The notes beneath the pieces are model-generated. The model was given only the letters and a program-made list of their open reading frames with translations. It was not told the DNA's origin and made no database searches. A program made the position numbers and the translations under genes. DNA of 60,283 nucleotides, from positions 1-60,283 of the IMG/VR virus record IMGVR_UViG_3300021086_000005; one strand, written 5' to 3'. Origin of the DNA: a virus. Lineage: Duplodnaviria > Caudoviricetes. Below, piece after piece: positions 2,565 through 60,283 of this stretch (positions are counted from its first letter, which is position 1; every line of letters begins with the position of its first letter).

Positions 2565-2668
2565 TGTCACATCTGTCACGTGACAGCATGAGTGTCACGT
2601 GACAGTATGGCAATGGCCCATTCGGGGGATCGTGTAAACGGCTCGACCAGCAAGTAGGCTTTGTCACA
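2565..2668. promoter_or_regulatory. Operator region with TGTCACGTGACA palindromes between divergent genes
   Basis: CTGTCACGTGACAG 2573-2586, TGTCACGTGACA 2593-2604, TGTCAC half sites at 2565 and 2662. Confidence 0.65.
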
Positions 2669-3516
2669 TGACCGTGAACAGGGGTGGCGCAGGGGCTGCG
2701 CACGAGCTCGGCGCCGGCCTCCGGGCACTGCGCGAGCGTGCGGAACTCACCACTCGCGCGCTCGCCTGGCGCGTCGAAGCGTCCGCGGCCAACGTCAGCA
2801 ACTGGGAACGCAGCGAACGCCTTCTATCCGAAGAGCGCCTGATCAAGATCCTCGAAGTGCTGCAAGCTCCCGACGATGAGCGCGAACGCCTGCTCGGTCT
2901 GCGCCGGCAAGCCGAAGGGCCTGGACAGCTCGTGTCCGGCGCGCCCAGCATCGGACCACAACTGGCGAAGCTGATCGAGCACGAGCAGGTCGCCCGCAGC
3001 ATCACCGACGTCGCACCACTGCTGATCCCCGGGTTGTTGCAGACCAGTGACTATGCCCGCGCCACCCTCACCGACCAGCGGGACGTCGATACACGGATTG
3101 CACTACGGATCGGGCGCCGCGATGTCCTGACCCGCACACGGCAGCCTGCCGAACTGGTCGCGCTGATCGACTCGGAGGCGCTGATTCGGCCGGTCGCGTC
3201 ACCGCATGTCATGGCGGACCAACTGCGACACCTGCTGCGCATGGCCGAACTGCCCAATGTCACGATCCAGTTGGTATCGAGCACGGCGTCGGGCTACAAC
3301 CCGATGCTGACCGGGCCGTTCATCCTGCTCGAATTCCCCACCGCGCCGCCGATCGTGCATGTGGAGCACTATCAGGCCAGCGCGTTCATCTGGGAGAACG
3401 AAGACGTCCACGGCTTCCAAGCCGCGGTCGAGAAGATCCACAACGTGGCGATGACCCCGGCGGACACGGCCAGGGTCATCGCGGAGCTCGTCAACGGAAT
3501 GGAGCCGGAGACATGA
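2668..3516 (+). CDS. XRE HTH + DUF5753 protein (WhiJ/Scr1-like)
   Basis: N-terminal HTH, LLIPGLLQTSDYARA, QLRHLLRMAELPNVTIQLV motifs; followed by DUF397 genes. Confidence 0.9.
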   Translation: MTVNRGGAGAAHELGAGLRALRERAELTTRALAWRVEASAANVSNWERSERLLSEERLIKILEVLQAPDDERERLLGLRRQAEGPGQLVSGAPSIGPQLAKLIEHEQVARSITDVAPLLIPGLLQTSDYARATLTDQRDVDTRIALRIGRRDVLTRTRQPAELVALIDSEALIRPVASPHVMADQLRHLLRMAELPNVTIQLVSSTASGYNPMLTGPFILLEFPTAPPIVHVEHYQASAFIWENEDVHGFQAAVEKIHNVAMTPADTARVIAELVNGMEPET

Positions 3517-3701
3517 TGACAGTACCAATTCAGACGGCCCGCTGGCGCAAGTCCAGCCGGTCCAGCAGCAACGACACCTGCGTGGAGCTCGTGCACACGC
3601 TCGATCAGGTTCGGGACAGCAAGAACGTAAACGGCCCGACCCTTCGGATCAATGCCGCTGCTCTCGTGGCTGCGGTGAAGGGCAACCGGATCAGCAGGTA
3701 G
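3513..3701 (+). CDS. DUF397 protein
   Basis: WRKSSRS...CVEL...VRDSKN..GPTL signature. Confidence 0.9.
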   Translation: MMTVPIQTARWRKSSRSSSNDTCVELVHTLDQVRDSKNVNGPTLRINAAALVAAVKGNRISR

Positions 3702-3937: not shown

Positions 3938-3976
3938 GAACGCCCCCGGCATCCGCAAAGGAAGCCGGGGGCGTTC
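3938..3976. terminator. Hairpin terminator after DUF397 pair
   Basis: GAACGCCCCCGGC...GCCGGGGGCGTTC 13-bp stem. Confidence 0.7.
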
Positions 3977-3999
3977 CGCTGTCGCCACGGGTTAGACTG

Positions 4000-5159
4000 C
4001 TGGCGCCAGGCTGTCGGCAGCTGGCGACAGCGCTAGTTATTTGGACGCCCCCCGGCGGTGCTACCAACACCAACCGGGGGACTTGATCGCCCCAGGAGGC
4101 GACCCGCATGGATCGTAGTGTCACCACTGGCGACGCCACGTGAGCACCCTGGCGCCAGTCGTCGATCAAATCCGCCAGGAGTTCGCCAGGGCCGACAGCG
4201 ATCGCCAGCCCCGCCCTGGCCGCCCCGCCCTCGTGCAGCTCACTGGCGCCACCGACTACCGGGTACGCAAGGCTCTGGAGACCATCGAGCGGGACCTGGC
4301 GCCAGAGCCGCCGCCAGTCGCTGAGATGTCACCAGTGGTCGCCAATCCCGAACCTGCCGCTGTCGCCAGCGCTGGCGAGCCGATCGCCAGCCCACCGATT
4401 CACCGCGGCTGGCTGGCACTGCTGGCGCTGCCCGCTTTCGTGGCGGTGTGGGGCGGCTGGGTCGGGCTCGGCGCCCTAGCCGGGTTCGGGCCGGTAGCGC
4501 TACTCCCCGGCATCGCGGACCACTTCACGGTGAACCTGGCGGTCACGCTGCCGGCCGGCATGGAGGTCTACGCGGTCATCGGCCTCCGGGTGTGGCTGTC
4601 CAGCCGGACCCGGACCGAACGCACCCGGCGGTTCGCCGCCTGGTCGAGCTGCGCAGCACTGCTGGTCGGGTGTTCCGGGCAGGTCGCCTACCACGTGCTG
4701 GCCCGACCCGCGACGGGTGCACCACTGGGCGTCACGGTCGCTGTCGCGTGCCTGCCTGTCGCGCTGCTCGGCATGGGTGCGGCCCTGTTCCACCTGGTCG
4801 CCGACGACCAGCGCGGTATCGCTGGCGCCAGCAGGCCCGCCAGTTCCTGATCGACCCACCAGCCGCTGGGCGGCGGCACACAGGCCTCGAAACCAGGCCG
4901 CCGCCCAGCGAACCACCTCGCAAGGAGGCACACCCATCATGGTCGAAAATGACCATGGCGCGGACGTGACCGCGCGGTCATTCACTCCGATGGCGGACAC
5001 CTGGCGCCAGCGGGTCGCCAGCCTGGACTCCGCGGCGCACCCGTCTGGGGACATCGACGCCGCCGCGACTGCCAAGGCCGGGCCGCTGGCGGTCCTGACG
5101 ACAGCGCTGGCGAAGGTCCTGGCGCCAGTCGGCGCCAGGCTGGCGACCACTGGCGCCAG
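4000..5159. repeat. Dispersed palindromes CTGGCGCCAG (7 perfect copies plus many half sites)
   Basis: Copies at 4000, 4149, 4296, 4822, 5001, 5119, 5150. Confidence 0.85.
4140..4850 (+). CDS. SpdA/DUF2637-like plasmid spread membrane protein
   Basis: N-terminal helical RPGRPALVQLTGATDYRVRKAL, about four TM segments (WLALLALPAFVAVWGGWVGLG...GQVAYHVL...LPVALLGMGAALFHL); context upstream of TraB. Confidence 0.65.
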   Translation: MSTLAPVVDQIRQEFARADSDRQPRPGRPALVQLTGATDYRVRKALETIERDLAPEPPPVAEMSPVVANPEPAAVASAGEPIASPPIHRGWLALLALPAFVAVWGGWVGLGALAGFGPVALLPGIADHFTVNLAVTLPAGMEVYAVIGLRVWLSSRTRTERTRRFAAWSSCAALLVGCSGQVAYHVLARPATGAPLGVTVAVACLPVALLGMGAALFHLVADDQRGIAGASRPASS

Positions 5160-5172
5160 GTGTCGCCCATGA
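4939..5172 (+). CDS. Small hypothetical protein of the transfer module
   Basis: AAGGAGG RBS; ATGA overlap with transglycosylase gene. Confidence 0.55.
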   Translation: MVENDHGADVTARSFTPMADTWRQRVASLDSAAHPSGDIDAAATAKAGPLAVLTTALAKVLAPVGARLATTGARCRP

Positions 5173-5690
5173 CTTGGCACGGCTGCCTGTGGAAGATCAC
5201 CGTCCTGCTCGGCGGGGTCGCGCTGATCGGCGCCACAGTCCGTCCTCACGGCGGGATCAGCGCCGCCTTGACGGGCGCACAGGGGCCCACCTCGGTGGCC
5301 GGGATTCCCGCGCGCTACCTCGCCGATTACCGGGCGGCCGGAACGATGTGCCCGCGGCTGGACTGGGCGATCCTGGCGGGCATCGGCGCGGTCGAGACCA
5401 ACCACGGCCAATCACCCCTCCCCGGTGTGGCTTCGGGTGCGAACTTCGCTGGCGCGGAAGGCCCGATGCAGTTCCTGACCAGCACGTTCGCGTCGGTCCG
5501 TGCCCGGCACCGAGACGTCGGCCCAGACATCTACAGCCCGGACGCGGCGATCCCCGCTGCTGCGCACTTGCTGTGCGACAACGGCTACTCCACCAACCCC
5601 TACGGCGCGATCTGGACCTACAACCACGCCGACTGGTACGTGCGCGAGGTCCGGGCTCGCGCAGCCGGTTACCGCGCGGTCGGCACCTAA
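5169..5690 (+). CDS. Secreted/anchored lytic transglycosylase (SLT-like)
   Basis: N-terminal hydrophobic segment; WAILAGIGAVETNHG (catalytic Glu), GAEGPMQFL, AIWTYNHADWYV. Confidence 0.85.
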   Translation: MTWHGCLWKITVLLGGVALIGATVRPHGGISAALTGAQGPTSVAGIPARYLADYRAAGTMCPRLDWAILAGIGAVETNHGQSPLPGVASGANFAGAEGPMQFLTSTFASVRARHRDVGPDIYSPDAAIPAAAHLLCDNGYSTNPYGAIWTYNHADWYVREVRARAAGYRAVGT

Positions 5691-5746: not shown

Positions 5747-5905
5747 ATGATCACTCCTACTCCCACGAACCGCCGGCTGGCTTGGGTGCTGCGCATCGGC
5801 GGCGGCGGCCTCGCGCTGCTCCTGGCGGTCGGGTTCGGCGTGCAGGTGCAATACGACCACCACATCATCGCCCTGGCGCCCGCCGTATCCGCCCAGCGCG
5901 CCTGA
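5747..5905 (+). CDS. Small single-TM protein (Spd-like)
   Basis: GAAAGG RBS; hydrophobic LAWVLRIGGGGLALLLAVGFGV. Confidence 0.55.
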   Translation: MITPTPTNRRLAWVLRIGGGGLALLLAVGFGVQVQYDHHIIALAPAVSAQRA

Positions 5906-5938
5906 ACGCCCCGCCAGCAAGCCCAACCAGCGAAAAGG

Positions 5939-6106
5939 ATGAATAACAAGATCATGAAGAGACTGTCAACGCCGGCGAAGGTACTGCTCACCGTCGTCCT
6001 GGTCGCCCTCGCCTACGGCGTGGGCCAAGCGCGACTGGCGCAGGGCGTGAACCCCGACGTGCTGCACCTGGACACCCACCCCACCGCTGTCGCCGCGCAG
6101 CACTGA
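5939..6106 (+). CDS. Small single-TM protein (not in ORF track)
   Basis: Manual translation MNNKIMKRLSTPAKVLLTVVLVALAYGVGQARL...QH*. Confidence 0.5.
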   Translation: MNNKIMKRLSTPAKVLLTVVLVALAYGVGQARLAQGVNPDVLHLDTHPTAVAAQH

Positions 6107-6177
6107 CCCGCTGGGTGCGCGCCTGTGCATCGGGCGACGGTGCGCACCCAGCGGGCCCACTGGACAGGAGAGACGAA

Positions 6178-8376
6178 ATGAGCACCGAGTCGGATAACGC
6201 GAACGTAGAGCCGGCGGGCGAACTGGCGAACGTGCGATACCTGCCGGTGCGCACCGACACCACGGCCGTCGAGGACGTCGTTGACGGCGTGATCTGCGAC
6301 CAGGACGAATACGACCGGCTGACCTCCCTGCGCGGGCAGGCGGGCAGGCTCGTCGCGCGGGCAGTGCGGGTGGTGACACCGGTCTCCGACCCGGCTGACC
6401 TGCGCCGCGTGGCTGGCGCGATCTGGACCGGCCACGCGGTGTGGGCACGGCGGATCGCTGACGGCGCCGGCCACGCGATGATCCGCCGCGAGATCGACGC
6501 CGCCCGGATGACCGGCGACCTGGTGGCCCTCGCCGCGACGCATGACCGGCTGGTAGCCGCCCAGCAGCGGAGGGCGCAGCGACTGAACCACGCCCCGCAG
6601 ACCGTGTGGGCGCTGCTCAAGGCCGCCGCGCTGATCATGGCTTCGCTGCTGGTGGTTGCGGTCGCGGTCGGCGGGGTCTGCGCCATCTACCACCCGCTGG
6701 GCGTCGGGTGGTCGGACTGGTGGGGTCTGATCGGCGACGGGATCAACCTCGCGGCCACGGTGACCGTGATCGCGGTCAACATCGCCCTGTGGGGCACCGT
6801 GCCGGCCTGGCTGGTGGCCGCGTACCGCACCGGCCGTACGCAGGTCGCCGCACCGACGTGGATGGCGCCGGCCGGCCACGAGGGTGTCGACGGGCGGGAG
6901 ATCCTGCCGACCGCGGACATGATCCTCTCGGCGCTGGCCCACCTCGGCATCGCGGCGCTGGACAAAGCGTTCAAGCAGGGATTCGGCACCACGAAATGGC
7001 CGCTACAGATCTTCGAGGGCCCGGTCGTCGCCGATGGCCTGGGGTACATGGCCCGGATTCGCCTGCCGCAGGGTTGCGACGTCGAGAAGGTCGTGGCACG
7101 CAAGGCGACGCTGGCGCACAACCTCGTCCGCACCCAGCGGGAAGTGTGGATCACAGAGCCTTCGGCGGCTGTCCTCGGCCTGTGGATGGCCAACCCTGGC
7201 GCGCTGTCCGGCGCGGTGCCCGAGTGGCCGCTGCTCGCCGAACTGGAGACCGCCCAGACCGACTACTGGAAGGCGGTCCCGGTCGGGTTCGACCTGCGCG
7301 GGGACGTCGTCAACGGCCGGTTCTTCGAGTGCAACTGGGCGCTGGGCGGGGCGATGGGCTCGGGTAAGTCCACGCTGGTCATCGTGGGGGTCCTCGGCGC
7401 GATGCTGGACCCGCTGGTGGAGATCGACGTGTTCGTGTGCGCCCCGAATGCGGACTACGAGCCGATGCGCGCCCGCCTGCGGACGCTGGAGACCGGCACC
7501 GGTGACGACGTGCCCGATGCGGCTGTGGCCTGCATGCAGGAACTGTACGACTCGATCGAGTATCGGGGTCGGGCGCTACAGGACAAGACGATCAACAAAG
7601 AGGGGGCCCGGTCGATCACGCGGGCCATGGCCCGGCGAGACCCCCGGTTGCGGCCCCGGATCGTGATCATCGACGAGTGCCAGCGGGTTTTCGCCGACCA
7701 CGACAAGGTCGACAAGGTCAGCAAGAAGGGCCTGTCGCGCGGTGAGATCGCGACCGATGTCGCGGTGCAGTTGGTCAACGCGGGCCGCAAATACGCCATC
7801 ACGCTGATCTTGCTGACCCCCGAGCCGACCGGGAACAGCCTCCCCCGCAAGCTGATGACCGTGTTCACCCACAAGGCGTGCGGCGCGATCGGTGACCAGA
7901 CCAGCAACGACGCCGTGCTGAACACCGGGAGCTACAAGGCCGGGATCAGCGCGGTAGGACTGGACCCGAAGACGGACGACGCGCTCAACGACTGCGGCAC
8001 GCTGATGACCAGGGGTTTCATGGGCAAGCCGGGTTTGCTGCGGAGCTGCTACGTGGGTCCGGCCGACGCGGCACGGGTCACGGCCCGCGCGATGCAGCTA
8101 CGGGAAGGTCACGCGCCGGCTGCGATCGAGGCGCCCCGCGACGTGCTGGCCGACGTGGAGACCGTGCTCCGCGGTGGCGACGTCAAGGCCAGCGACGTCG
8201 CGGCGAGGCTGCGGAACCTGGCACGGGGTGATCCGCAGTACGCCGATCTAACCGCCGAGGGGCTGGCCGCGCTGCTCGACGACCTGGACGTGCCGGTGCG
8301 GCTGAAGGACGGTTACCTCACGGTGCGTGTGGCTCGGGTTCGGGCCGCGATCGCCGAACGGGAGGCCAGCGAGTAG
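6178..8376 (+). CDS. traB: TraB-type FtsK/SpoIIIE conjugative dsDNA translocase
   Basis: N-terminal TM helices, Walker A GAMGSGKS, Walker B IVIIDE, C-terminal winged-helix-like region; AGGAG RBS. Confidence 0.85.
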   Translation: MSTESDNANVEPAGELANVRYLPVRTDTTAVEDVVDGVICDQDEYDRLTSLRGQAGRLVARAVRVVTPVSDPADLRRVAGAIWTGHAVWARRIADGAGHAMIRREIDAARMTGDLVALAATHDRLVAAQQRRAQRLNHAPQTVWALLKAAALIMASLLVVAVAVGGVCAIYHPLGVGWSDWWGLIGDGINLAATVTVIAVNIALWGTVPAWLVAAYRTGRTQVAAPTWMAPAGHEGVDGREILPTADMILSALAHLGIAALDKAFKQGFGTTKWPLQIFEGPVVADGLGYMARIRLPQGCDVEKVVARKATLAHNLVRTQREVWITEPSAAVLGLWMANPGALSGAVPEWPLLAELETAQTDYWKAVPVGFDLRGDVVNGRFFECNWALGGAMGSGKSTLVIVGVLGAMLDPLVEIDVFVCAPNADYEPMRARLRTLETGTGDDVPDAAVACMQELYDSIEYRGRALQDKTINKEGARSITRAMARRDPRLRPRIVIIDECQRVFADHDKVDKVSKKGLSRGEIATDVAVQLVNAGRKYAITLILLTPEPTGNSLPRKLMTVFTHKACGAIGDQTSNDAVLNTGSYKAGISAVGLDPKTDDALNDCGTLMTRGFMGKPGLLRSCYVGPADAARVTARAMQLREGHAPAAIEAPRDVLADVETVLRGGDVKASDVAARLRNLARGDPQYADLTAEGLAALLDDLDVPVRLKDGYLTVRVARVRAAIAEREASE

Positions 8377-8379
8377 CGA

Positions 8380-8524
8380 AAACGGCCCAGAAGGACGAGT
8401 GACTCACTCCGCTCACTTGACTCACTTCTGGGCCGTTTCCGCAGGTCAGACCGAGTGAATGGGGCAAGTGACGCAATAAGTGGATTTCCACTTGCCTGCG
8501 GCCGACTCACTTGCGTGGCCACTT
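8380..8524. repeat. clt-like locus: GACTCACT(T) repeats plus 14-bp inverted repeat
   Basis: GACTCACT 8401, GCTCACTT 8411, GACTCACTT 8419 and 8504, CCACTT variants 8488 and 8519, inverted (A/G)AGTG(A/G) copies at 8397, 8453, 8466, 8478; IR 8380-8393/8425-8438. Confidence 0.7.
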
Positions 8525-8821
8525 CCGGGATTGGATGCACACAGTAACCGAGAACGATCGCCGATCAGGCCGGTGCAGCACACCAGCGGCGATGAGCACG
8601 ACCAGCACCGCCGGCAGGAGGACGGTGAGCCGGTACAGGACCGGGCCGGCCTGGGTCTCAGCGAGGGCCGACAGGAGCGCGAGGCAGGTGAGCCACGTGA
8701 AGACGATGCCGGCGAGCACGAGGAGTCGGACGTCGTTGGCCAGGCGTGCCCGCGTGTCTGGTTCGTTAGCGCGGCGTTTTCGCGTCTTGGATCTTGATAC
8801 GAGGCCCTGGCAGGGCTCTGA

Positions 8822-8857
8822 GCTCCTCCAGTTGGACTCGAACCAACAACCCTTCGG
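8822..8857 (-). other. attP: attP core = 3' half of a tRNA, most likely tRNA-Asn(GTT)
   Basis: Minus strand CCGAAGGGTTGTTGGTTCGAGTCCAACTGGAGGAGC: variable loop, T-arm GTTGG-TTCGAGT-CCAAC, acceptor 3' strand ending GGAG as in actinobacterial tRNA-Asn; ~140 nt past integrase stop. Confidence 0.8.
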
Positions 8858-8999
8858 GTTGAGGTCCATGATTCCCCTCAGTGTCGTCCGATGCCATGTA
8901 ATGCCCTTGAACTGCTATGGAGCAGGCTACCACCGTCTTGCCAATGTCATCCGGTGACGCTCATTACCCGTGGTTTCCGAGGCGTTTTCGCGTCTTTGA

Positions 9000-10208
9000 T
9001 CATGACTCTTCGGCCTCATCCAACATGCCCTCGAGCATCGCCGCGGTCGCCTCGTTCGCGATGCGCTTCGGGATGTAGTGCTTCTCCGCAACCGCCTTCG
9101 TGTTGCCGAGCTGGTTGGCCACGTCCGACACGCTCCCCCCGGCGCCGTCGATCACATGGGCCACGGTCTTGCGGAACACGTGCGACGTGACCCACGAATA
9201 GCCCGTCTCGTCGAACCCCTGCCGCAGCCGCTTCCCCGCGTTCGACGGATCCAGCCAGCCGCCATCCCAGGCCGGCCACAGCGCTCCCCCGCCGCTCGCC
9301 AGCTTCCGGCGGCGCCACATCGGCACCGACCACGCCGGCACCCGCAGCACCAAGCCAGCGGCGTTGCCCTTCCGCAGCCGTCGGCGCACGAGGCCCTGCC
9401 CGGTGACGCGGATGATGTGCCAGTCGATCCGCACGATCCGCTCGGCCGGATCGACCTCGTCACCGGAGAGGGCGAGCAGTTCGCCGATCCGGATCCCGGT
9501 GGCCAGCATCCCCTCGTACTGGTCGGGCAGGTCGGTCCACACGTCGACCCGCTTGGCCATCGACCGACCGAGTTCGTCGTGGGCCTTGGTCGCGGCGAAC
9601 GCCTGAAGCTTGAGGTACAGGTCGCGGCGCTGCTCGGCGTCCAGCGCCCGCACCTCCTTGGCCTCGCCGCGGGGGATCCGCGCGACCGACCGGACCGGGT
9701 TGTGGGTCAGCGCGCCGTGGCGCACGGCGAAGTCGCACACCGACGACAACACGCTGCGCACCGTCTTGGCGGTGTCGGCGCTCCGCTTGTCGTGCGCCCG
9801 TTTGATCATGGTGTCGCAGGTGCCGGCGCTGATCTCGGCGTCGCTGGTGAGTAGCTCCCCCATCGCCGGGATGATCCAGTTGTTCAGCGCGCCCCGGTAG
9901 ACACGGGCGGTGGCGGGCGAAGTGTCGCCGAGCCGGGAGGCGCGCTCGACCTCCTCGTGCCACCGGTCGCACACGAACGCGAACCGGCTGCGGGAGGTGA
10001 TCGTGCCGCTGGTGACTTCGTCGGTGAGCGTCGCGAGGGCTTTCTTGATGGCGCGTTCGGCGGCGGCGCGGGTTGTGCCGGCGCGGCGGACGTGTTTGAT
10101 CGCGCCGCTGCGGACCCGGAATCGGCAGCGTGCTTCCCACCGTTTCGGGCCAATTTGGACGTAGGTGATGTTGCCGGCGGTGCCGATGGGGAGCGGGGGC
10201 CTGGCCAT
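9000..10208 (-). CDS. int: Tyrosine integrase
   Basis: TGIRIGELLAL, SHVFRKT, QLGN, EKHY catalytic motifs; N-terminal arm-binding domain. Confidence 0.95.
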   Translation of the reverse strand: MARPPLPIGTAGNITYVQIGPKRWEARCRFRVRSGAIKHVRRAGTTRAAAERAIKKALATLTDEVTSGTITSRSRFAFVCDRWHEEVERASRLGDTSPATARVYRGALNNWIIPAMGELLTSDAEISAGTCDTMIKRAHDKRSADTAKTVRSVLSSVCDFAVRHGALTHNPVRSVARIPRGEAKEVRALDAEQRRDLYLKLQAFAATKAHDELGRSMAKRVDVWTDLPDQYEGMLATGIRIGELLALSGDEVDPAERIVRIDWHIIRVTGQGLVRRRLRKGNAAGLVLRVPAWSVPMWRRRKLASGGGALWPAWDGGWLDPSNAGKRLRQGFDETGYSWVTSHVFRKTVAHVIDGAGGSVSDVANQLGNTKAVAEKHYIPKRIANEATAAMLEGMLDEAEES

Positions 10209-10278
10209 TCGATCTGTCCCTCAGACTGGAGCGAGTTGCCGGCCAGCGGCCCGGGGTCCTGGGGCCGCTGGCCGGCGT

Positions 10279-10560
10279 CTAGTGGTCGCTGTCGGCGTTT
10301 GATCGGAGGCCGCGGAGGCGCTGCTCCGCGTGCTGCTGGCGGACCTCCTGGTTCGCTAGGGCGGTTGCGTCGGCGATCTCGTGGGTGTGGATGATTAACC
10401 AGGCCAGCCACGTCGCGGCGGCGATGACGATTAGGCAGACGGCGGGCACATTCCAACGCGGTATTGGGTCGGTGAAATCGATCGCCAGCACGATGGCTGC
10501 TACCGTAGTTGATGCGATTGCGACTGCACGAGCGACGCTGCTGCGTCGGTGTCTGCCCAT
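10279..10560 (-). CDS. Two-TM membrane protein between repressor and integrase
   Basis: GGAGGA RBS before ATG10560; two hydrophobic helices. Confidence 0.6.
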   Translation of the reverse strand: MGRHRRSSVARAVAIASTTVAAIVLAIDFTDPIPRWNVPAVCLIVIAAATWLAWLIIHTHEIADATALANQEVRQQHAEQRLRGLRSNADSDH

Positions 10561-10679
10561 GTGACCGTCCTCCTGGGTAGTCCTCGTCTTCGCCGCCTCC
10601 ACGTGGCATGTTTCCGATCGCGTCACCCGTTAGCAGTCTTACTGGCGAGTAGACACCCGAAGGGCGTAGGGGTCGGTCA

Positions 10680-14508: not shown

Positions 14509-14991
14509 ATGTCCATTTATGGGTCCACGTGGGACACCGACGCCGACGACCACGAACAGGATTGTGCACGGTGGGTCGAGTGCAGTTGTCCCGACTCGCG
14601 TACCGCTCACGGTCGGTGGATGGGCGGCAACGACGGCCGGCACTGGCGCTACGACGGAAACCTTCCCTGCTCGTGCCTTTGCGGGCCGATCGTCTACCAG
14701 GGCAGCCACATCCTGCCGTCCGATGAGGATCGACGTGGTGGCTCGTTCGGGTTCGGGGAGATCGCCGGCTTTATCACCCGCGACGGACGGGATGACGGCC
14801 CGGAGGACGAGGACCAGCCGTGGCCCTACCTGCGGGTCACGATGCACACGGAGGACATCGACGAGCCGCAGGATGTGGTGCTCGACGGACCGCTGATTGA
14901 GTCCTTGACGGACTACCTCGTGGCTTTCCGGGAGCGTCGACACGGACAGGCGCCGTCTGGGGACGTGTACCCGCTGGCGGTGCCGCAGTGA
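14509..14991 (+). CDS. Hypothetical phage protein
   Basis: MSIYGS... ORF overlapping methyltransferase start. Confidence 0.65.
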   Translation: MSIYGSTWDTDADDHEQDCARWVECSCPDSRTAHGRWMGGNDGRHWRYDGNLPCSCLCGPIVYQGSHILPSDEDRRGGSFGFGEIAGFITRDGRDDGPEDEDQPWPYLRVTMHTEDIDEPQDVVLDGPLIESLTDYLVAFRERRHGQAPSGDVYPLAVPQ

Positions 14992-16511
14992 TCACCGTGA
15001 CGGACCTGTTCTGCGGTGCCGGGGGTTCCGGTCTCGGCGCGACCAGCGTGTCCGGTGTCCAGCTCGTCATGGCTGCGAACCACTCGCCGCGCGCTATCGA
15101 GACCCATCAGCTCAACTTTCCGGCCACCGACCATGACTGCGCGGACATCTCCCAGGTCAACCCGCACCGCTACCAGTGGACGAACATCCTGTGGGCGTCA
15201 CCGGAGTGCACGAACCACTCCGTCGCCAAGGGCCGCAAGACATCGGCACAGCAAGCCGGACTGTTCGGCAACGACGACACCGCACTGGCCGAGCGAAGCC
15301 GATCAACGATGTGGGACGTTCCCCGATTCGCGGAGGTACACAGATACGACGCGGTGATCGTCGAGAACGTGGTCGACGCCGCGAACTGGCTGCCGTTCAA
15401 GGCGTGGCTCATGTCAATGGATGCGCTCGGCTACGACCACCACATCGTCTACCTCAACTCGATGCACGCTCCCGCGATCAACGCACCGCGGGCGCCGCAG
15501 TCGAGGGACCGCATGTACGTGTGCTTCTGGCGCAAGGGCAACCGCGCGCCGGATCTCGACGTCCGGCCGGCTGCGTGGTGCGACGAGTGCGGTGTCGAGG
15601 TCCGGGCTGTCCAGTCGTGGAAGCGCGGCACCCGGTGGGGCCGTTACCGCGCGCAGTACGTGTACCGGTGCCCTTCGATCGCGTGCCGGCACGCGATCGT
15701 GGAGCCCTACGTCCTTCCCGCCGCCGCGGCGATCGACTGGTCCCTGACCGGGCAGCGGATCGGCGACCGGCTCAAGCCGTTGGCGCCGGCCACGCTCGCG
15801 CGGATCGAGGCCGGCCTGAAGCGGTACGCGACGGCTCAGCTCGTGCCGGCCGGCGGGACGTGGAATCAGACCGCGCAGCCGGTGGACTGGCCGATGCGGA
15901 CCCGCACCACGCGGGAGACGGACGGCCTACTGGTGCCTGTCGAGGGACGCCGAGGGGTCGCGGCCGGCCCGGTGGAGCGTCCGATGCGGACGCAGACCAC
16001 GCGTCATCAGGATGCGTTGGTAGTGCCGTACTACTCGGCCGCCGCCACGGCCGCGCCGTCGTCGGAGCCGTTCGGCGCGCTGACGACCCGCGACCGGTAC
16101 GGGCTGGCGTTCGTCGCAGAGTTGCGCGGCGGGGGTTCGACCGCTCGCGATGTGCGGGAGCCGCTGTCCACTGTGTGCGCATCCGGGAACCACCACATGC
16201 TGGTCCGGCAGAACACGCCGCGCGGCGATCCCGGCCAGATGTGCACGCCGGTCACTGAGCCGGCCCGGACGATCACGACCGCCGGCCACCAGTCCCTCGT
16301 CGGGTGGCCACACGAGGTGCCCGATGTGGACGACTGCCGGTTCCGGATGCTGGCTGTCCCGGAGATCCAGGCGGCCATGGCGTTCACGCCGGAGTACGTC
16401 GTGGTCGGCAGCAAGCGGGAGCAGGTCAAGCAGCTCGGGAACGGTGTCACGCCGCCGGCGGCCGAGTTCCTGATCCGCGCGATGGTCGAGTCGCTGGGAG
16501 CTGCGTCGTGA
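14988..16511 (+). CDS. DNA (cytosine-5) methyltransferase
   Basis: DLFCGAGG (motif I), ASPEC (IV), VENV (VI), QSRDR (VIII), QLGNGV (X). Confidence 0.95.
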   Translation: MITVTDLFCGAGGSGLGATSVSGVQLVMAANHSPRAIETHQLNFPATDHDCADISQVNPHRYQWTNILWASPECTNHSVAKGRKTSAQQAGLFGNDDTALAERSRSTMWDVPRFAEVHRYDAVIVENVVDAANWLPFKAWLMSMDALGYDHHIVYLNSMHAPAINAPRAPQSRDRMYVCFWRKGNRAPDLDVRPAAWCDECGVEVRAVQSWKRGTRWGRYRAQYVYRCPSIACRHAIVEPYVLPAAAAIDWSLTGQRIGDRLKPLAPATLARIEAGLKRYATAQLVPAGGTWNQTAQPVDWPMRTRTTRETDGLLVPVEGRRGVAAGPVERPMRTQTTRHQDALVVPYYSAAATAAPSSEPFGALTTRDRYGLAFVAELRGGGSTARDVREPLSTVCASGNHHMLVRQNTPRGDPGQMCTPVTEPARTITTAGHQSLVGWPHEVPDVDDCRFRMLAVPEIQAAMAFTPEYVVVGSKREQVKQLGNGVTPPAAEFLIRAMVESLGAAS

Positions 16512-30342: not shown

Positions 30343-30777
30343 TCAGGCGGCGAGGTCGAACACCGCGAACGGGTCAGCGGGCTTCGGGCTGACCGTGGCC
30401 ACGCTGGCGACCGGGAACCTGGTCCAGCCGACGAACCACTCGGCGGCCAGCAGGTGAAAGCACCGGCGCCCGTACTGCCCGGCCTTGCAGGAGCACGACC
30501 CGGCGAGGGCGTTGACCTCGTAGTTCACGGAGCCGTCGGTGGACACGGCCAGGTAGACGGTGGGGGTGACGGGAACGATGGCGCCATCCTCGATGAGTTC
30601 GACGGCCTTGTCGACCTGCGTGGTGGGGTCGGTGCGGGCGGCGATGATGGCGGCTTCGGCGATCTTGGCGGCGCAGACCGGGCCGAGACCGGCGGCGACG
30701 GACTTGGTGGAGCGGAGGAGGCGACCGCAGCGGTGGCAGTGGGTGGTGGTCTGGCTGGCGGTCCCGCTCTGTGTCAT
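30343..30777 (-). CDS. DUF6011 + SWIM zinc-finger protein
   Basis: CHRCGRLL...SVAAGLGPVC and CSCKAG...CFHLLA. Confidence 0.8.
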   Translation of the reverse strand: MTQSGTASQTTTHCHRCGRLLRSTKSVAAGLGPVCAAKIAEAAIIAARTDPTTQVDKAVELIEDGAIVPVTPTVYLAVSTDGSVNYEVNALAGSCSCKAGQYGRRCFHLLAAEWFVGWTRFPVASVATVSPKPADPFAVFDLAA

Positions 30778-30845
30778 GACACTAGAGTAGCTCATGTGTC
30801 ATGACACATGCAAGGGTTTCAGTCCAACAGGTGTCATGACATAAT
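30771..30845. promoter_or_regulatory. Divergent promoter with three GTGTCATGACA(C) operators
   Basis: Sites 30771-30782, 30793-30810 (18-bp perfect palindrome), 30831-30841; minus-strand TTGCAT-17-TACTCT. Confidence 0.8.
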
Positions 30846-30851
30846 GGTAAG

Positions 30852-31043
30852 ATGACAGGCAGAGTCGGACGAGGCACCGCACGCCAAACCGTCCGCATCG
30901 ACCACGAACGGTGGGACCGGTTCGAAGCAGCCGCGAAGGCTATCGACACCGACCGATCGAAGCTGATCAACGACTTCGTTGCCTGGTTCATCCGCGAACC
31001 CGGCGCGAAGGCCCCGAAGCGTCCCGAGAGGACAGAGCCGTGA
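30852..31043 (+). CDS. Ribbon-helix-helix-type DNA-binding protein
   Basis: RQTVRIDHERWDRFEAAAKAIDTDRSKLINDFVAWF. Confidence 0.7.
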   Translation: MTGRVGRGTARQTVRIDHERWDRFEAAAKAIDTDRSKLINDFVAWFIREPGAKAPKRPERTEP

Positions 31044-31585
31044 AGCTCACCGCGCTGGCTGTCATCGCCGGCGTCTTGCTATCCCTGACCGCCTGCCAGG
31101 CCGCGGCCGGCAGCACCACCCCGGCCGCGACGGTCGCTGTCGTGACCTCCGGTTGCCACGCAGGTACGGACGCCGGCCAGCCGTTGCCGGACCCGCACTG
31201 CACCCCCGGAGCCACCAACCCAGCAGTGACCCCAGCGACGATCCACGCGACGATCTGTGTGTCGGGTTGGACCGCGACTGTCCGTCCGCCGCAGTCGTAC
31301 ACGGAGCCGCTGAAGCGCTCGGGCATCCACCAGTACGGCTACACCGACACCCGCTTGTCCAGCTACGAAGAAGACCACCTGGTGTCGCTTGAACTGGGCG
31401 GCTCACCCCGTGACCCGCGCAACCTGTGGCCCGAACCGGGCAGGTCCCCGAACGTGAAGGACCGGGTGGAATCGGCTGCGCATTCGGCGGTGTGCTCGGG
31501 TCGCCTGCCGCTCGCTGCTGCGCAGGCCGGGATCGCTGCGGATTGGGTGACGCTGGGACGCCAGTTGGGGGTGAAGATCCCGTGA
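31040..31585 (+). CDS. Putative lipoprotein with HNH-like nuclease motif
   Basis: Signal peptide with lipobox LTAC; YEEDHLVSLELGGSP.DPRNLWPE. Confidence 0.7.
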   Translation: MKLTALAVIAGVLLSLTACQAAAGSTTPAATVAVVTSGCHAGTDAGQPLPDPHCTPGATNPAVTPATIHATICVSGWTATVRPPQSYTEPLKRSGIHQYGYTDTRLSSYEEDHLVSLELGGSPRDPRNLWPEPGRSPNVKDRVESAAHSAVCSGRLPLAAAQAGIAADWVTLGRQLGVKIP

Positions 31586-59978: not shown

Positions 59979-60175
59979 TCGCCCGCTACCGCAAGGCCCT
60001 CGCCGCACTGTTCGGCGCCCTCACCCCGGCCGTCGTCGTGTTCGTCCTCGGCCTGGTCGGGGTGCACGTCGATCCGACCGTGGCCGCGGCAATCTGCACC
60101 GTGCTGGCAACCGGGCTGACCATCCTGGTGCCGGCGAACGCACCGAAGCCGGCTGCACTGCGGCCGACGGACTGA
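59975..60175 (+). CDS. Holin (two TM)
   Basis: RYRKALAALFGA...TILVPAN. Confidence 0.75.
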   Translation: MIARYRKALAALFGALTPAVVVFVLGLVGVHVDPTVAAAICTVLATGLTILVPANAPKPAALRPTD

Positions 60176-60283
60176 CCTCGTGTTCCGCAACTGGCTCCGC
60201 AACCAATTCGATCAAGTCAAGGAGATCCTCATGGCCACCCAGGCCGACATCGACGCCCTCACCGCCCAGCTCACCTCGTTCCA
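60156..60283. repeat. Terminal overlap copy 2
   Basis: Same sequence as 1..128. Confidence 0.95.

Follow-up and report, generated by a model that had tools for sequence, protein, structure and literature searches.

The array of short repeated words that begins just past the stop codon of a traB-like gene in this virus genome is most probably the clt locus of the adjacent TraB translocase, and we estimate the probability of this reading, which rests on sequence analysis, at about 75%. Such a locus had been put forward in the original prediction, and the interpretation is supported at this level. The array abuts the stop codon of a TraB homologue and is made of short words in both orientations. 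Its layout recurs in 116 of 135 relatives as well as in plasmids pSVH1 and pSG5, and the word co-varies with the C-terminus of the protein. TraB is reported to assemble at clt on 8-bp repeats through helix α3 of its C-terminal wHTH, and the clt loci of pWTY27, pJV1 and pIJ101 are reported as direct and inverted repeats beside tra (PMC4170104, PMC3583192, PMC4447253). The window analysed here, 60,283 nucleotides in length, is the entire virus record.

The traB-like gene and its repeat array

The traB-like gene, encoding an FtsK/SpoIIIE-type dsDNA translocase, is located on the plus strand at positions 6178–8376 (ATG at 6178, 732 residues; the longest open reading frame starts from a GTG at 6115) and ends with a TAG codon at 8374–8376. 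The 732-residue form (on record as P0002) contains a Walker A motif, GSGKST, and a Walker B motif, IIDECQ. Two long hydrophobic stretches, a putative N-terminal membrane anchor, can be read from the translation, and the AlphaFold2 model, which has a mean pLDDT of 74, contains long helices. The protein is matched by PHROG 1358 (FtsK/SpoIIIE-like, 3.1e-9) and by the PDB profile of FtsK (1.3e-4), while Pfam and NCBIfam hold no family that matches it above cut-off, merely a sub-threshold match to Zot. A Foldseek search with the model finds FtsK motor domains (1.5e-14, TM-scores of 0.60–0.63 normalised to the target) and also the conjugation coupling protein TcpA.

In tblastn searches, 29 actinomycete plasmid records are matched by the phage protein. 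The alignment with pSVH1 TraB has an E value of 8e-10 and 23.9% identity over residues 276–642, and that with pSG5 TraB an E value of 1e-9. Judged from these alignments, the phage gene is a distant homologue of the traB genes of the two plasmids, and TraB of pSVH1 has been characterised experimentally as a conjugative translocase. Among 8,000 scored candidates, 97 are relatives at E ≤ 1e-5, mainly from Pseudonocardiaceae, Streptosporangiaceae and Streptomyces. The closest of them (P0003–P0007, with 59–79% identity) are found in metagenomes only, and the named relatives, at about 40–45%, belong to Amycolatopsis, Kibdelosporangium, Prauserella, Lentzea, Streptosporangium and Streptomyces.

The C-terminal region of TraB (residues ~656–731, positions 8143–8373 on the plus strand) is predicted to form a winged-helix-like domain, based on the topology of its AlphaFold2 model and on structural matches. 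The last 94 residues are modelled with a pLDDT of 88.8 and the topology H-H-H-H-β-β-H, and the top matches of the C-terminus in the PDB are winged-helix proteins, all of them weak (E ≥ 0.06): the C-terminal domain of Cdt1, Sso10a, MarR, PadR and TcpK. With the co-variation described below, the domain is proposed to be the reader of the repeats.

The array covers positions 8397–8524 and, by motif count, contains ten copies of the word YCACTY on the two strands, six on the plus strand (8404, 8413, 8422, 8488, 8507 and 8519) and four on the minus strand (8397, 8453, 8466 and 8478). The order is one inverted copy, three direct copies (8404, 8413 and 8422, with 9-nt spacing) and a conserved 14-nt element, followed by three inverted copies (8453, 8466 and 8478) and finally three direct ones (8488, 8507 and 8519). 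The fuller form of the word is (G)A(C)TCACTT(G). As is usual for clt loci, the words are on the same replicon as traB and adjoin it, the first copy being 21 nt past the stop codon. With ten cores in 128 nt, the array falls within the clt pattern of several short words (about 7–9 bp), direct and/or inverted, in ~50–200 bp, and it is more degenerate than that of pSVH1 (three exact 8-mers in the phage array, as against five in pSVH1). It had been claimed that about ten copies follow the traB stop. This holds for the 6-nt core, with ten in 8397–8524, and fails for the 8-mer, of which there are three exact copies.

The first four copies are enclosed by a hairpin with perfect 14-bp arms (8380–8393 and 8425–8438), located by an inverted-repeat search and in the sequence itself. 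The near-palindrome GAGTGACTCACTC (8397–8409) is inside it, just as the original prediction had described. At the other end, a small minus-strand open reading frame that is convergent with traB (8507–8740; its start is uncertain, and the longest open reading frame extends to 8869) reaches with its 3′ end into the last two copies. Its product would have two hydrophobic helices; it belongs to no Pfam, NCBIfam or PHROG family and has no homologue in the 156 traB loci. We treat this frame as context of the array and, at most, as a candidate for membership in the module.

A genome-wide count of the 8-mer, suggested as a check on the clt assignment, places all three copies of GACTCACT in the record, counted on both strands, within 8377–8535. 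Counted in the same way, this region holds 3 of the 6 copies of CTCACTT, 4 of the 11 copies of TCACTT and 7 of the 30 copies of [CT]CACTT, where 0.08 would be expected from the density. YCACTY occurs 67 times on the two strands of the record, with 57 copies outside the array. For this core, which was defined post hoc from the sequence in view, the chance expectation is ~0.13 per 140 nt, compared to the ten copies counted in 8397–8524, and no 140-nt window of the record is richer in it than the array. On the other hand, when exact 6- and 7-mers are counted in 200-nt windows, the array is no outlier within its own record: its four copies of AGTGAG are matched by 17.5% of the control windows from the same record, and its three copies of GACTCAC by 30.5%. 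This is because denser arrays of other words are present elsewhere in the record.

The record contains at least three further word arrays. One of these is located upstream of traB and has the word CTGGCGCCAG. It lies within a gene for a 236-residue protein on the plus strand (4140–4850), and it is denser than the array after traB, which points to another DNA-binding system in the same module. The 236-residue protein belongs to no known family, with no match in Pfam, NCBIfam or PHROG. The gene is found upstream of traB in 16 of the 156 loci and is probably part of the transfer module.

The traB reading frame is intact, and every column that is invariant in alignment A1 is kept. The suggestion that the traB-clt module is still functional is plausible in light of this intact frame and the complete array. 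Among the open reading frames scanned in the 1–12 kb region, neither a GntR-type kor/traR regulator nor a recognisable spd was found, and the module may therefore be incomplete. A megablast search with positions 5900–10300 against phages and plasmids gave no match, and an Rfam search of 8200–9100 gave a single match, at chance level (E 0.98).

Layout and co-variation in the TraB family

Loci with TraB relatives were collected from metagenomes (31), genomes (80) and IMG/VR (45), giving 156 in all; the closest relatives, P0003–P0007, are not among them. Together with the phage record, 136 loci include the whole 3′ end of the gene and no less than 300 nt beyond it, 135 of them with a clean protein. 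The most frequent 6-mer, with the strands pooled, was counted in a window of 235 nt starting 15 nt before the traB stop, and 6,252 windows from the same loci served as controls. At least four copies of one 6-mer follow the stop in 86% of the 135 loci, compared to 27% of the controls. The difference becomes larger at higher thresholds, with at least five copies in 77 of the 135 loci (57%) and 6.4% of the controls, and at least six in 39% and 2.2%, respectively.

The word itself varies by clade. GCCTCC is used in 42 loci, AGTTAG in 10, CGGGGA in 9 and CAGGGA in 8, and the other words include GGGTTA, CGTAAC, ATTAGG, ACGGAG, AGTGGA and CAGTGA. The same architecture is thus combined with element-specific words in the relatives, as it is among clt loci. 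In pSVH1, four copies of GACCCGGA and one inverted copy are located 16–115 nt past the traB stop, and in pSG5 there are five copies of CCCGGAC downstream of traB. GACCCGGA is the reported TraB recognition sequence of pSVH1 (PMC5133688). On these counts, a word array after traB is a trait of the whole TraB family.

Anchoring of the downstream regions on a shared motif reveals a stereotyped layout. The stop codon is followed by a GC-rich hairpin, two or three direct words with 8–9-nt spacing, the element (C/G)TTTCCGCAGGTCA, one or more inverted words, and direct words. In the phage record, the 14-nt element TGACCTGCGGAAAC is found in exact form on the minus strand at 8435–8448, between the two halves of the array, and it overlaps the right arm of the hairpin. 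With up to three mismatches, TGACCTGCGGAAAC is present within 350 nt past the traB stop in 84 of the 136 loci, compared to a background of 0.07 per 360 nt elsewhere in the loci. It is positioned 147 nt past the stop in both pSVH1 and pSG5, and the sequence beyond its borders is not conserved.

The purine-rich form of the word is always on the 3′ side of TGACCTGCGGAAAC, which means that, relative to traB, the unit as a whole has opposite orientations in the clade of this phage and in the Streptomyces-type clade. Of 24 distinct loci with the element oriented as in the phage record, 15 have at least two same-strand words in the preceding 40 nt, and 8 have three such words there. The phage record also has three same-strand words before the element, with spacings of 9 and 9. 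A role of TGACCTGCGGAAAC as part of a promoter was considered and rejected, as no –10 box is conserved at a constant distance from it and as both of its orientations relative to the flanking genes are found. It appears in no paper found by a literature search. Our guess is that it serves as a loading or bending site within clt.

The relationship between the word and the protein was analyzed with 105 non-redundant proteins, for which pairs of loci were binned by the identity of their motor domains. Among pairs matched for motor-domain identity, those that share a word have an identity in the last 78 residues that is 6–14 points higher than those whose words differ, the values for same and different words being 0.42 and 0.33, 0.48 and 0.34, 0.49 and 0.35, 0.51 and 0.45, and 0.59 and 0.52 in the successive bins. 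The corresponding differences in two control regions (the membrane region and residues 300–380) range from –6 to +9 points and are 2 points or less in 7 of 10 bins. The word therefore appears to co-vary with the C-terminal domain of TraB and not with the two control regions. This evidence is supportive rather than decisive, since the pairs of loci are not phylogenetically independent.

In the aligned C-termini, the residues of the wing sort by word class. D/N-G-Y is found with xAGTGx words, N-R-W with TTA-containing words, and G-K/R-M with GGGAGG/CAGGGA. The C-terminus most similar to that of the phage TraB, with 49% identity, the highest of 29, is from a locus (L033) with the word AGTGGAT/ATCCACT, and this variant of the word is present in the phage array at 8478–8493.

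Short repeated words beside genes are typical of operators and iterons too, and the words could belong to a protein of the module other than TraB. Candidates would be a repressor of the kil-kor type, a protein that initiates replication or acts in partition, and the protein encoded by the small convergent open reading frame. RepAM of pMEA300 is reported to bind 8-bp repeats (PMC2440964) and SpdA2 of pIJ101 a palindrome (PMC4170104), the phage record itself has the additional arrays noted above, and in pCM32 the array is located between traB and a primase-polymerase gene. However, the position of the array is fixed to the traB stop whatever gene comes next, and the word tracks the C-terminus of TraB and not the two other regions of this protein. 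Moreover, the phage record and two of the other loci (L132 and L153) share the upstream word CGCCAG and the gene there, yet differ in their downstream words, and the equivalent words of pSVH1 are reported TraB sites (PMC5133688). We consider it unlikely that another protein is the reader.

The region between the convergent genes also has a strong potential for RNA structure. The extended arms of the hairpin (8376–8393 and 8425–8442) are 18 nt long, 94% complementary and 31 nt apart, and the RNA fold of 8365–8535 has an energy of –72.9 kcal/mol (z = –3.6), with 1 of 200 shuffled sequences being equally stable. With a GC-rich hairpin directly after the stop in many of the relatives as well, the region could be merely a terminator or an RNA structure, and the repeats a by-product of one long imperfect hairpin. 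Six of the ten copies (8453–8524) are outside the hairpin, however, and direct copies at 9-nt spacing cannot pair with each other. The words change by clade while their number, order and spacing are kept, which a terminator would not need. In addition, there is no T-tract 3′ of the hairpin, and a simple promoter and terminator scan of 8200–9100 gave 0 sites of each. A structure of this kind as the whole explanation is quite improbable. With the array read as clt, the hairpin of the first copies probably doubles as the transcription terminator of traB.

The phage genome and its attachment site

The first 128 nt of the record recur at its end with 99% identity. The virion genes in the record encode a terminase large subunit, a portal, a ClpP-type prohead protease and an HK97-type capsid, and there are also genes for a protein of tape-measure size (1,128 residues) and for a tail protein with a carbohydrate-binding domain. 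The lysogeny genes are those for a tyrosine integrase, a cI-like and cro-like HTH pair, and an HTH_17 excisionase-like protein. The overlapping ends together with the capsid, portal and terminase genes indicate that the traB-clt module is phage-borne. Based on this gene content, the replicon would be a seemingly complete, 60-kb genome of a temperate tailed phage from soil that integrates into tRNA-Asn. Accessory genes of temperate phages are often located between the late or lysis end and attP, and this is where traB and the array are placed. Assignment of the replicon as an AICE, which is described as Int, Rep and Tra modules in the absence of virion genes (PMC3218068), was rejected. Int and Tra are present, yet so are the terminase, portal, prohead protease, HK97-type capsid and tape-measure-sized protein.

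The attP core was located by BLAST on the minus strand at 8822–8860, and it corresponds to the 3′ part of a tRNA-Asn(GTT) gene, from the anticodon loop to the acceptor end. This segment matches the 3′ part of tRNA-Asn in four of five actinomycete genomes and a tRNA-Leu gene in the fifth. The best match is 95% over 37 nt, with the differences in the acceptor stem, where the phage sequence presumably matches its true host. This segment occurs once in the record, and a complete tRNA is absent from the 60,283 nt. Contigs of a possible source run break at 8822–8851, with a loose end and alternative sequence to the left of 8822, the outcome expected if the phage and a host tRNA have the att core in common. 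In three other soil runs, 8304–8447 is uncovered and relatives of the int/attP region are deep, though this comes from contigs only and carries no weight.

Two copies of an exact 16-nt repeat on the minus strand, AAGACGCGAAAACGCC, flank the attP core (8773–8788 and 8981–8996). They are part of a 33-nt direct repeat (8765–8797 and 8973–9005, 85% identical) and are 34 and 121 nt from the core. At least two matches to AAGACGCGAAAACGCC with three or fewer mismatches are obtained in 17 of 100 shuffles, so that exactness and placement carry the argument, not the count. The integrase gene is located next to them on the minus strand (9000–10208), and its product is matched by Phage_int_M (1.2e-8), Phage_integrase (1.6e-4) and PHROG 1 (1.4e-30). 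No relatives of this integrase were found in IMG/VR.

Lambda-type integrases bind repeated 8–10-bp arm sites in both orientations, generally up to about 150 bp to the left or right of the crossover core (as in lambda and L5). The array is flanked by traB and int, with attP separating it from int, and the original prediction had named integrase arm sites as the finding that would overturn it. This alternative is disfavoured by the position of the attP core with its own flanking repeats. We regard it as very improbable that the YCACTY words are arm-type sites, as they are 297–425 nt from the core and beyond an open reading frame, outside the arm-site range, and as the same array layout follows traB in relatives while a homologue of the phage integrase is found within 6 kb of traB in none of the 156 loci. 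The AAGACGCGAAAACGCC copies, by their sequence and placement, are the better candidates for integrase arm sites.

TraB proteins in other viruses were sought in two collections. The phage TraB has no match at E ≤ 1e-5 among 50,697 deposited phage records. With pSVH1 TraB as the query, 87 of these records are matched, weakly, and they are cluster-J-like mycobacteriophages, Bacillus phages and Streptomyces phage Mischief19, all with the annotation "FtsK-like DNA translocase". A scan of IMG/VR with the single TraB protein gave no match, and an alignment-based scan of the same collection found 45 records with TraB relatives. A PF05065 (HK97-type) capsid is encoded in 23 of the 43 records searched (the two with the weakest matches, L155 and L156, were left out), including both that have direct terminal repeats. 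One of these two (L153) has the same clt layout. Phage genes homologous to those of the present record are within 6 kb of traB in four loci (L132, L018, L140 and L051). TraB is absent from five capsid-related virus records, four of them fragments and one 94% complete, which suggests that the module is accessory in this phage lineage. A literature search found no paper on phage-borne TraB beyond citations of pZL12.

Proposed function and comparison with known systems

We infer binding by TraB, hexamer loading and DNA transfer from the features described above. The C-terminal winged-helix-like domains of the TraB subunits would read the YCACTY / (G)ACTCACTT words, which are arranged around the one invariant 14-nt element with opposite orientations on its two sides. 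A TraB hexamer would assemble at the array on the double-stranded, circular form of the replicon, and the FtsK-like motor would drive the DNA across the membrane into an adjacent hyphal compartment or cell. For a 60-kb temperate phage that integrates into tRNA-Asn, the excised prophage would thereby gain a second, virion-independent route of spread.

A broader proposal is more tentative, and we consider it possible but doubtful. A tailed temperate actinophage may have acquired, beside its attP, the conjugation system of actinomycete plasmids that needs a single protein (traB with clt), so that its excised dsDNA genome could be pumped from hypha to hypha without virions, as a "conjugative prophage". 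Such a life-style may have arisen repeatedly; 23 of the 43 TraB-bearing IMG/VR records encode an HK97-type capsid, among them both records that have direct terminal repeats. The same proposal would make TGACCTGCGGAAAC the site at which all pumps of the TraB family are loaded, from pSVH1 to the phage.

To our knowledge, the clt loci defined so far are few, and all of them are on Streptomyces plasmids. As far as can be judged from sequence, the phage array adds a new member and a new word to the clt class, although the TRS tables in the supplements of the published papers may list some of the words. What appears to set this clt apart is its location in a tailed phage that integrates, together with the invariant element at its centre. 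The general signature of a clt would be clade-specific words around one invariant element, directly after traB, and it is readable in well over a hundred elements of Pseudonocardiaceae, Streptosporangiaceae and Streptomyces. The table of words and domains could be used to work out the code by which the winged helix of TraB recognises its words. If active, the module in a seemingly complete tailed phage would blur the distinction between transduction-type and conjugation-type spread in mycelial bacteria, and it would also allow mobilisation of the chromosome from the prophage.

The clt/TRS region of pSVH1 provides the closest comparison for the array. In both systems, direct and inverted short words begin within about 20 nt past the traB stop, span ~100–150 nt, and are followed or interrupted by TGACCTGCG(C/G)AAAC, and the two translocases are homologous. 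However, the word of the phage is different from GACCCGGA and more degenerate, and the phage unit is inverted relative to traB, with the element on the minus strand. The TraB proteins have 24% identity over the motor domain, and a phage is being compared with a small rolling-circle plasmid.

The clt loci of pWTY27, pJV1 and pIJ101, which were defined by experiment as acting in cis in transfer, resemble the phage array in having 5–9-bp direct repeats and imperfect inverted repeats. That of pWTY27 is located at and just past the 3′ end of tra, as in the phage (PMC3583192). In contrast, the words of the phage are unrelated to those of the three plasmids, and the clt of pIJ101 is positioned near korB and not after tra. 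A shared invariant element is not mentioned in the available parts of these reports.

KOPS and SRS are purine-rich words of ~8 bp that are read by the γ domain of FtsK and SpoIIIE, respectively. KOPS are dispersed and polar along the chromosome, and they orient a motor that is already loaded. The phage system is similar in that short words would be read by the C-terminal winged helix of a hexameric FtsK-type pump, an analogy that is also drawn in the TraB literature. In comparison to KOPS, the phage words are clustered at one place, in both orientations around a central element.

A phage-borne FtsK-type ATPase is also encoded by Mycobacterium phages Wanda, Baka and Omega and by Streptomyces phage Mischief19. 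Among the matches listed, these actinophage translocases have E values of 8e-7 to 1e-3 with pSVH1 TraB, at no more than 43% query coverage, and we know of no clt described for the FtsK-like translocases of isolated actinophages. The nearest precedent known to us for the present genome is pZL12, an actinomycete element that is likewise both phage and tra-bearing. It is a Streptomyces plasmid-phage whose major tra gene is reported to be needed for conjugal transfer (PMC3583192). pZL12 is an extrachromosomal plasmid-prophage with parAB, whereas the present phage would integrate into tRNA-Asn.

A central 14-nt element in the word arrays

The candidate clt downstream of traB (8397–8524) is an array of a short clade-specific repeat, or word, with the core YCACTY in the window. 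At the centre of this array is a near-invariant 14-nt element, TGACCTGCGGAAAC, located at 8435–8448 on the minus strand. The same element is central to the post-traB word arrays in 84 of the 136 loci drawn from L001–L156 (loci encoding TraB relatives) and the window. It is also found in the plasmids pSVH1 (at about 4009) and pSG5 (at about 4057). Both orientations of TGACCTGCGGAAAC relative to traB are seen across the loci, and the purine-rich form of the word is constantly located 3′ of the element, whichever way it faces traB. A literature search found no paper containing the TGACCTGCGGAAAC sequence.

Integrase region, record ends and other palindromes

The attP core is formed by the 3′ part of tRNA-Asn(GTT) (8822–8860, minus strand). 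An exact copy of AAGACGCGAAAACGCC is found on each side of this core (8773–8788 and 8981–8996, minus strand), and one of the two copies overlaps the stop codon of the integrase. Relatives of the int-attP region (window 8736–10300), about 85–95% alike, are deep in three further soil runs (X2, X3 and X5), and the traB part is thinly covered there, with 8304–8447 having no cover, in a descriptive comparison based on contigs only. The minus-strand ORF at 10279–10626, located between the integrase and cI-like genes, weakly matches SLATT_1, a two-helix effector domain (E value of 9.6e-4, sub-threshold).

The record carries a direct terminal repeat of 128 nt (1–128 and 60156–60283, 99% identity), as is usual for assemblies that are circular or terminally redundant. 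Positions 14988–16511 encode a C-5 cytosine DNA methylase (PF00145, E value of 2.8e-20). Homologues of this gene, with 41–72% identity, are located 1.3–3.4 kb downstream of traB in five of the 156 loci (L058, L077, L108, L045 and L066).

Two other sets of palindromes have an operator-like arrangement. Three copies of TGTCATGACA (30772, 30797 and 30832) and a half-site (30852) are found in region 30772–30857. The first two are inside the 5′ end of ORF 30343–30795 (minus strand) or just upstream of it, and the third, together with the half-site, is in the gap ahead of the divergent plus-strand gene 30911–31585. Two copies of TGTCACGTGACA (2574–2585 and 2593–2604), with several half-sites (region 2440–2670), are located upstream of the HTH_31/DUF5753 gene (2668–3516), which is followed by a DUF397 gene (3513–3701).

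The region upstream of traB

Immediately 5′ of traB, the ORF 5160–5690 weakly matches SLT, a lytic transglycosylase domain (E value of 7.6e-4; 19.5 bits, below the cut-off of 21.3), and two of the 156 loci have homologues near traB. A helper that opens the cell wall would suit a transfer module.

A second word array, denser than that after traB, is located at 3950–5200 and holds 32 CGCCAG/CTGGCG hexamers, out of 120 in the whole record. It includes seven perfect palindromes, CTGGCGCCAG (4000, 4149, 4296, 4822, 5001, 5119 and 5150). Some of the palindromes and words are within the gene for a 236-residue protein (4140–4850) and some are beyond it. The CGCCAG word is common to relatives having this gene (28 copies in L051, 19 in L132 and 16 in L153), and other loci have different words in the equivalent place (25 copies of GTGGGA in L113 and 21 of CTCCAG in L033). 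SpdA2 is reported to have its palindrome within its own gene (PMC4170104), and the upstream array of the window, with its 236-residue protein gene, is reminiscent of that arrangement.
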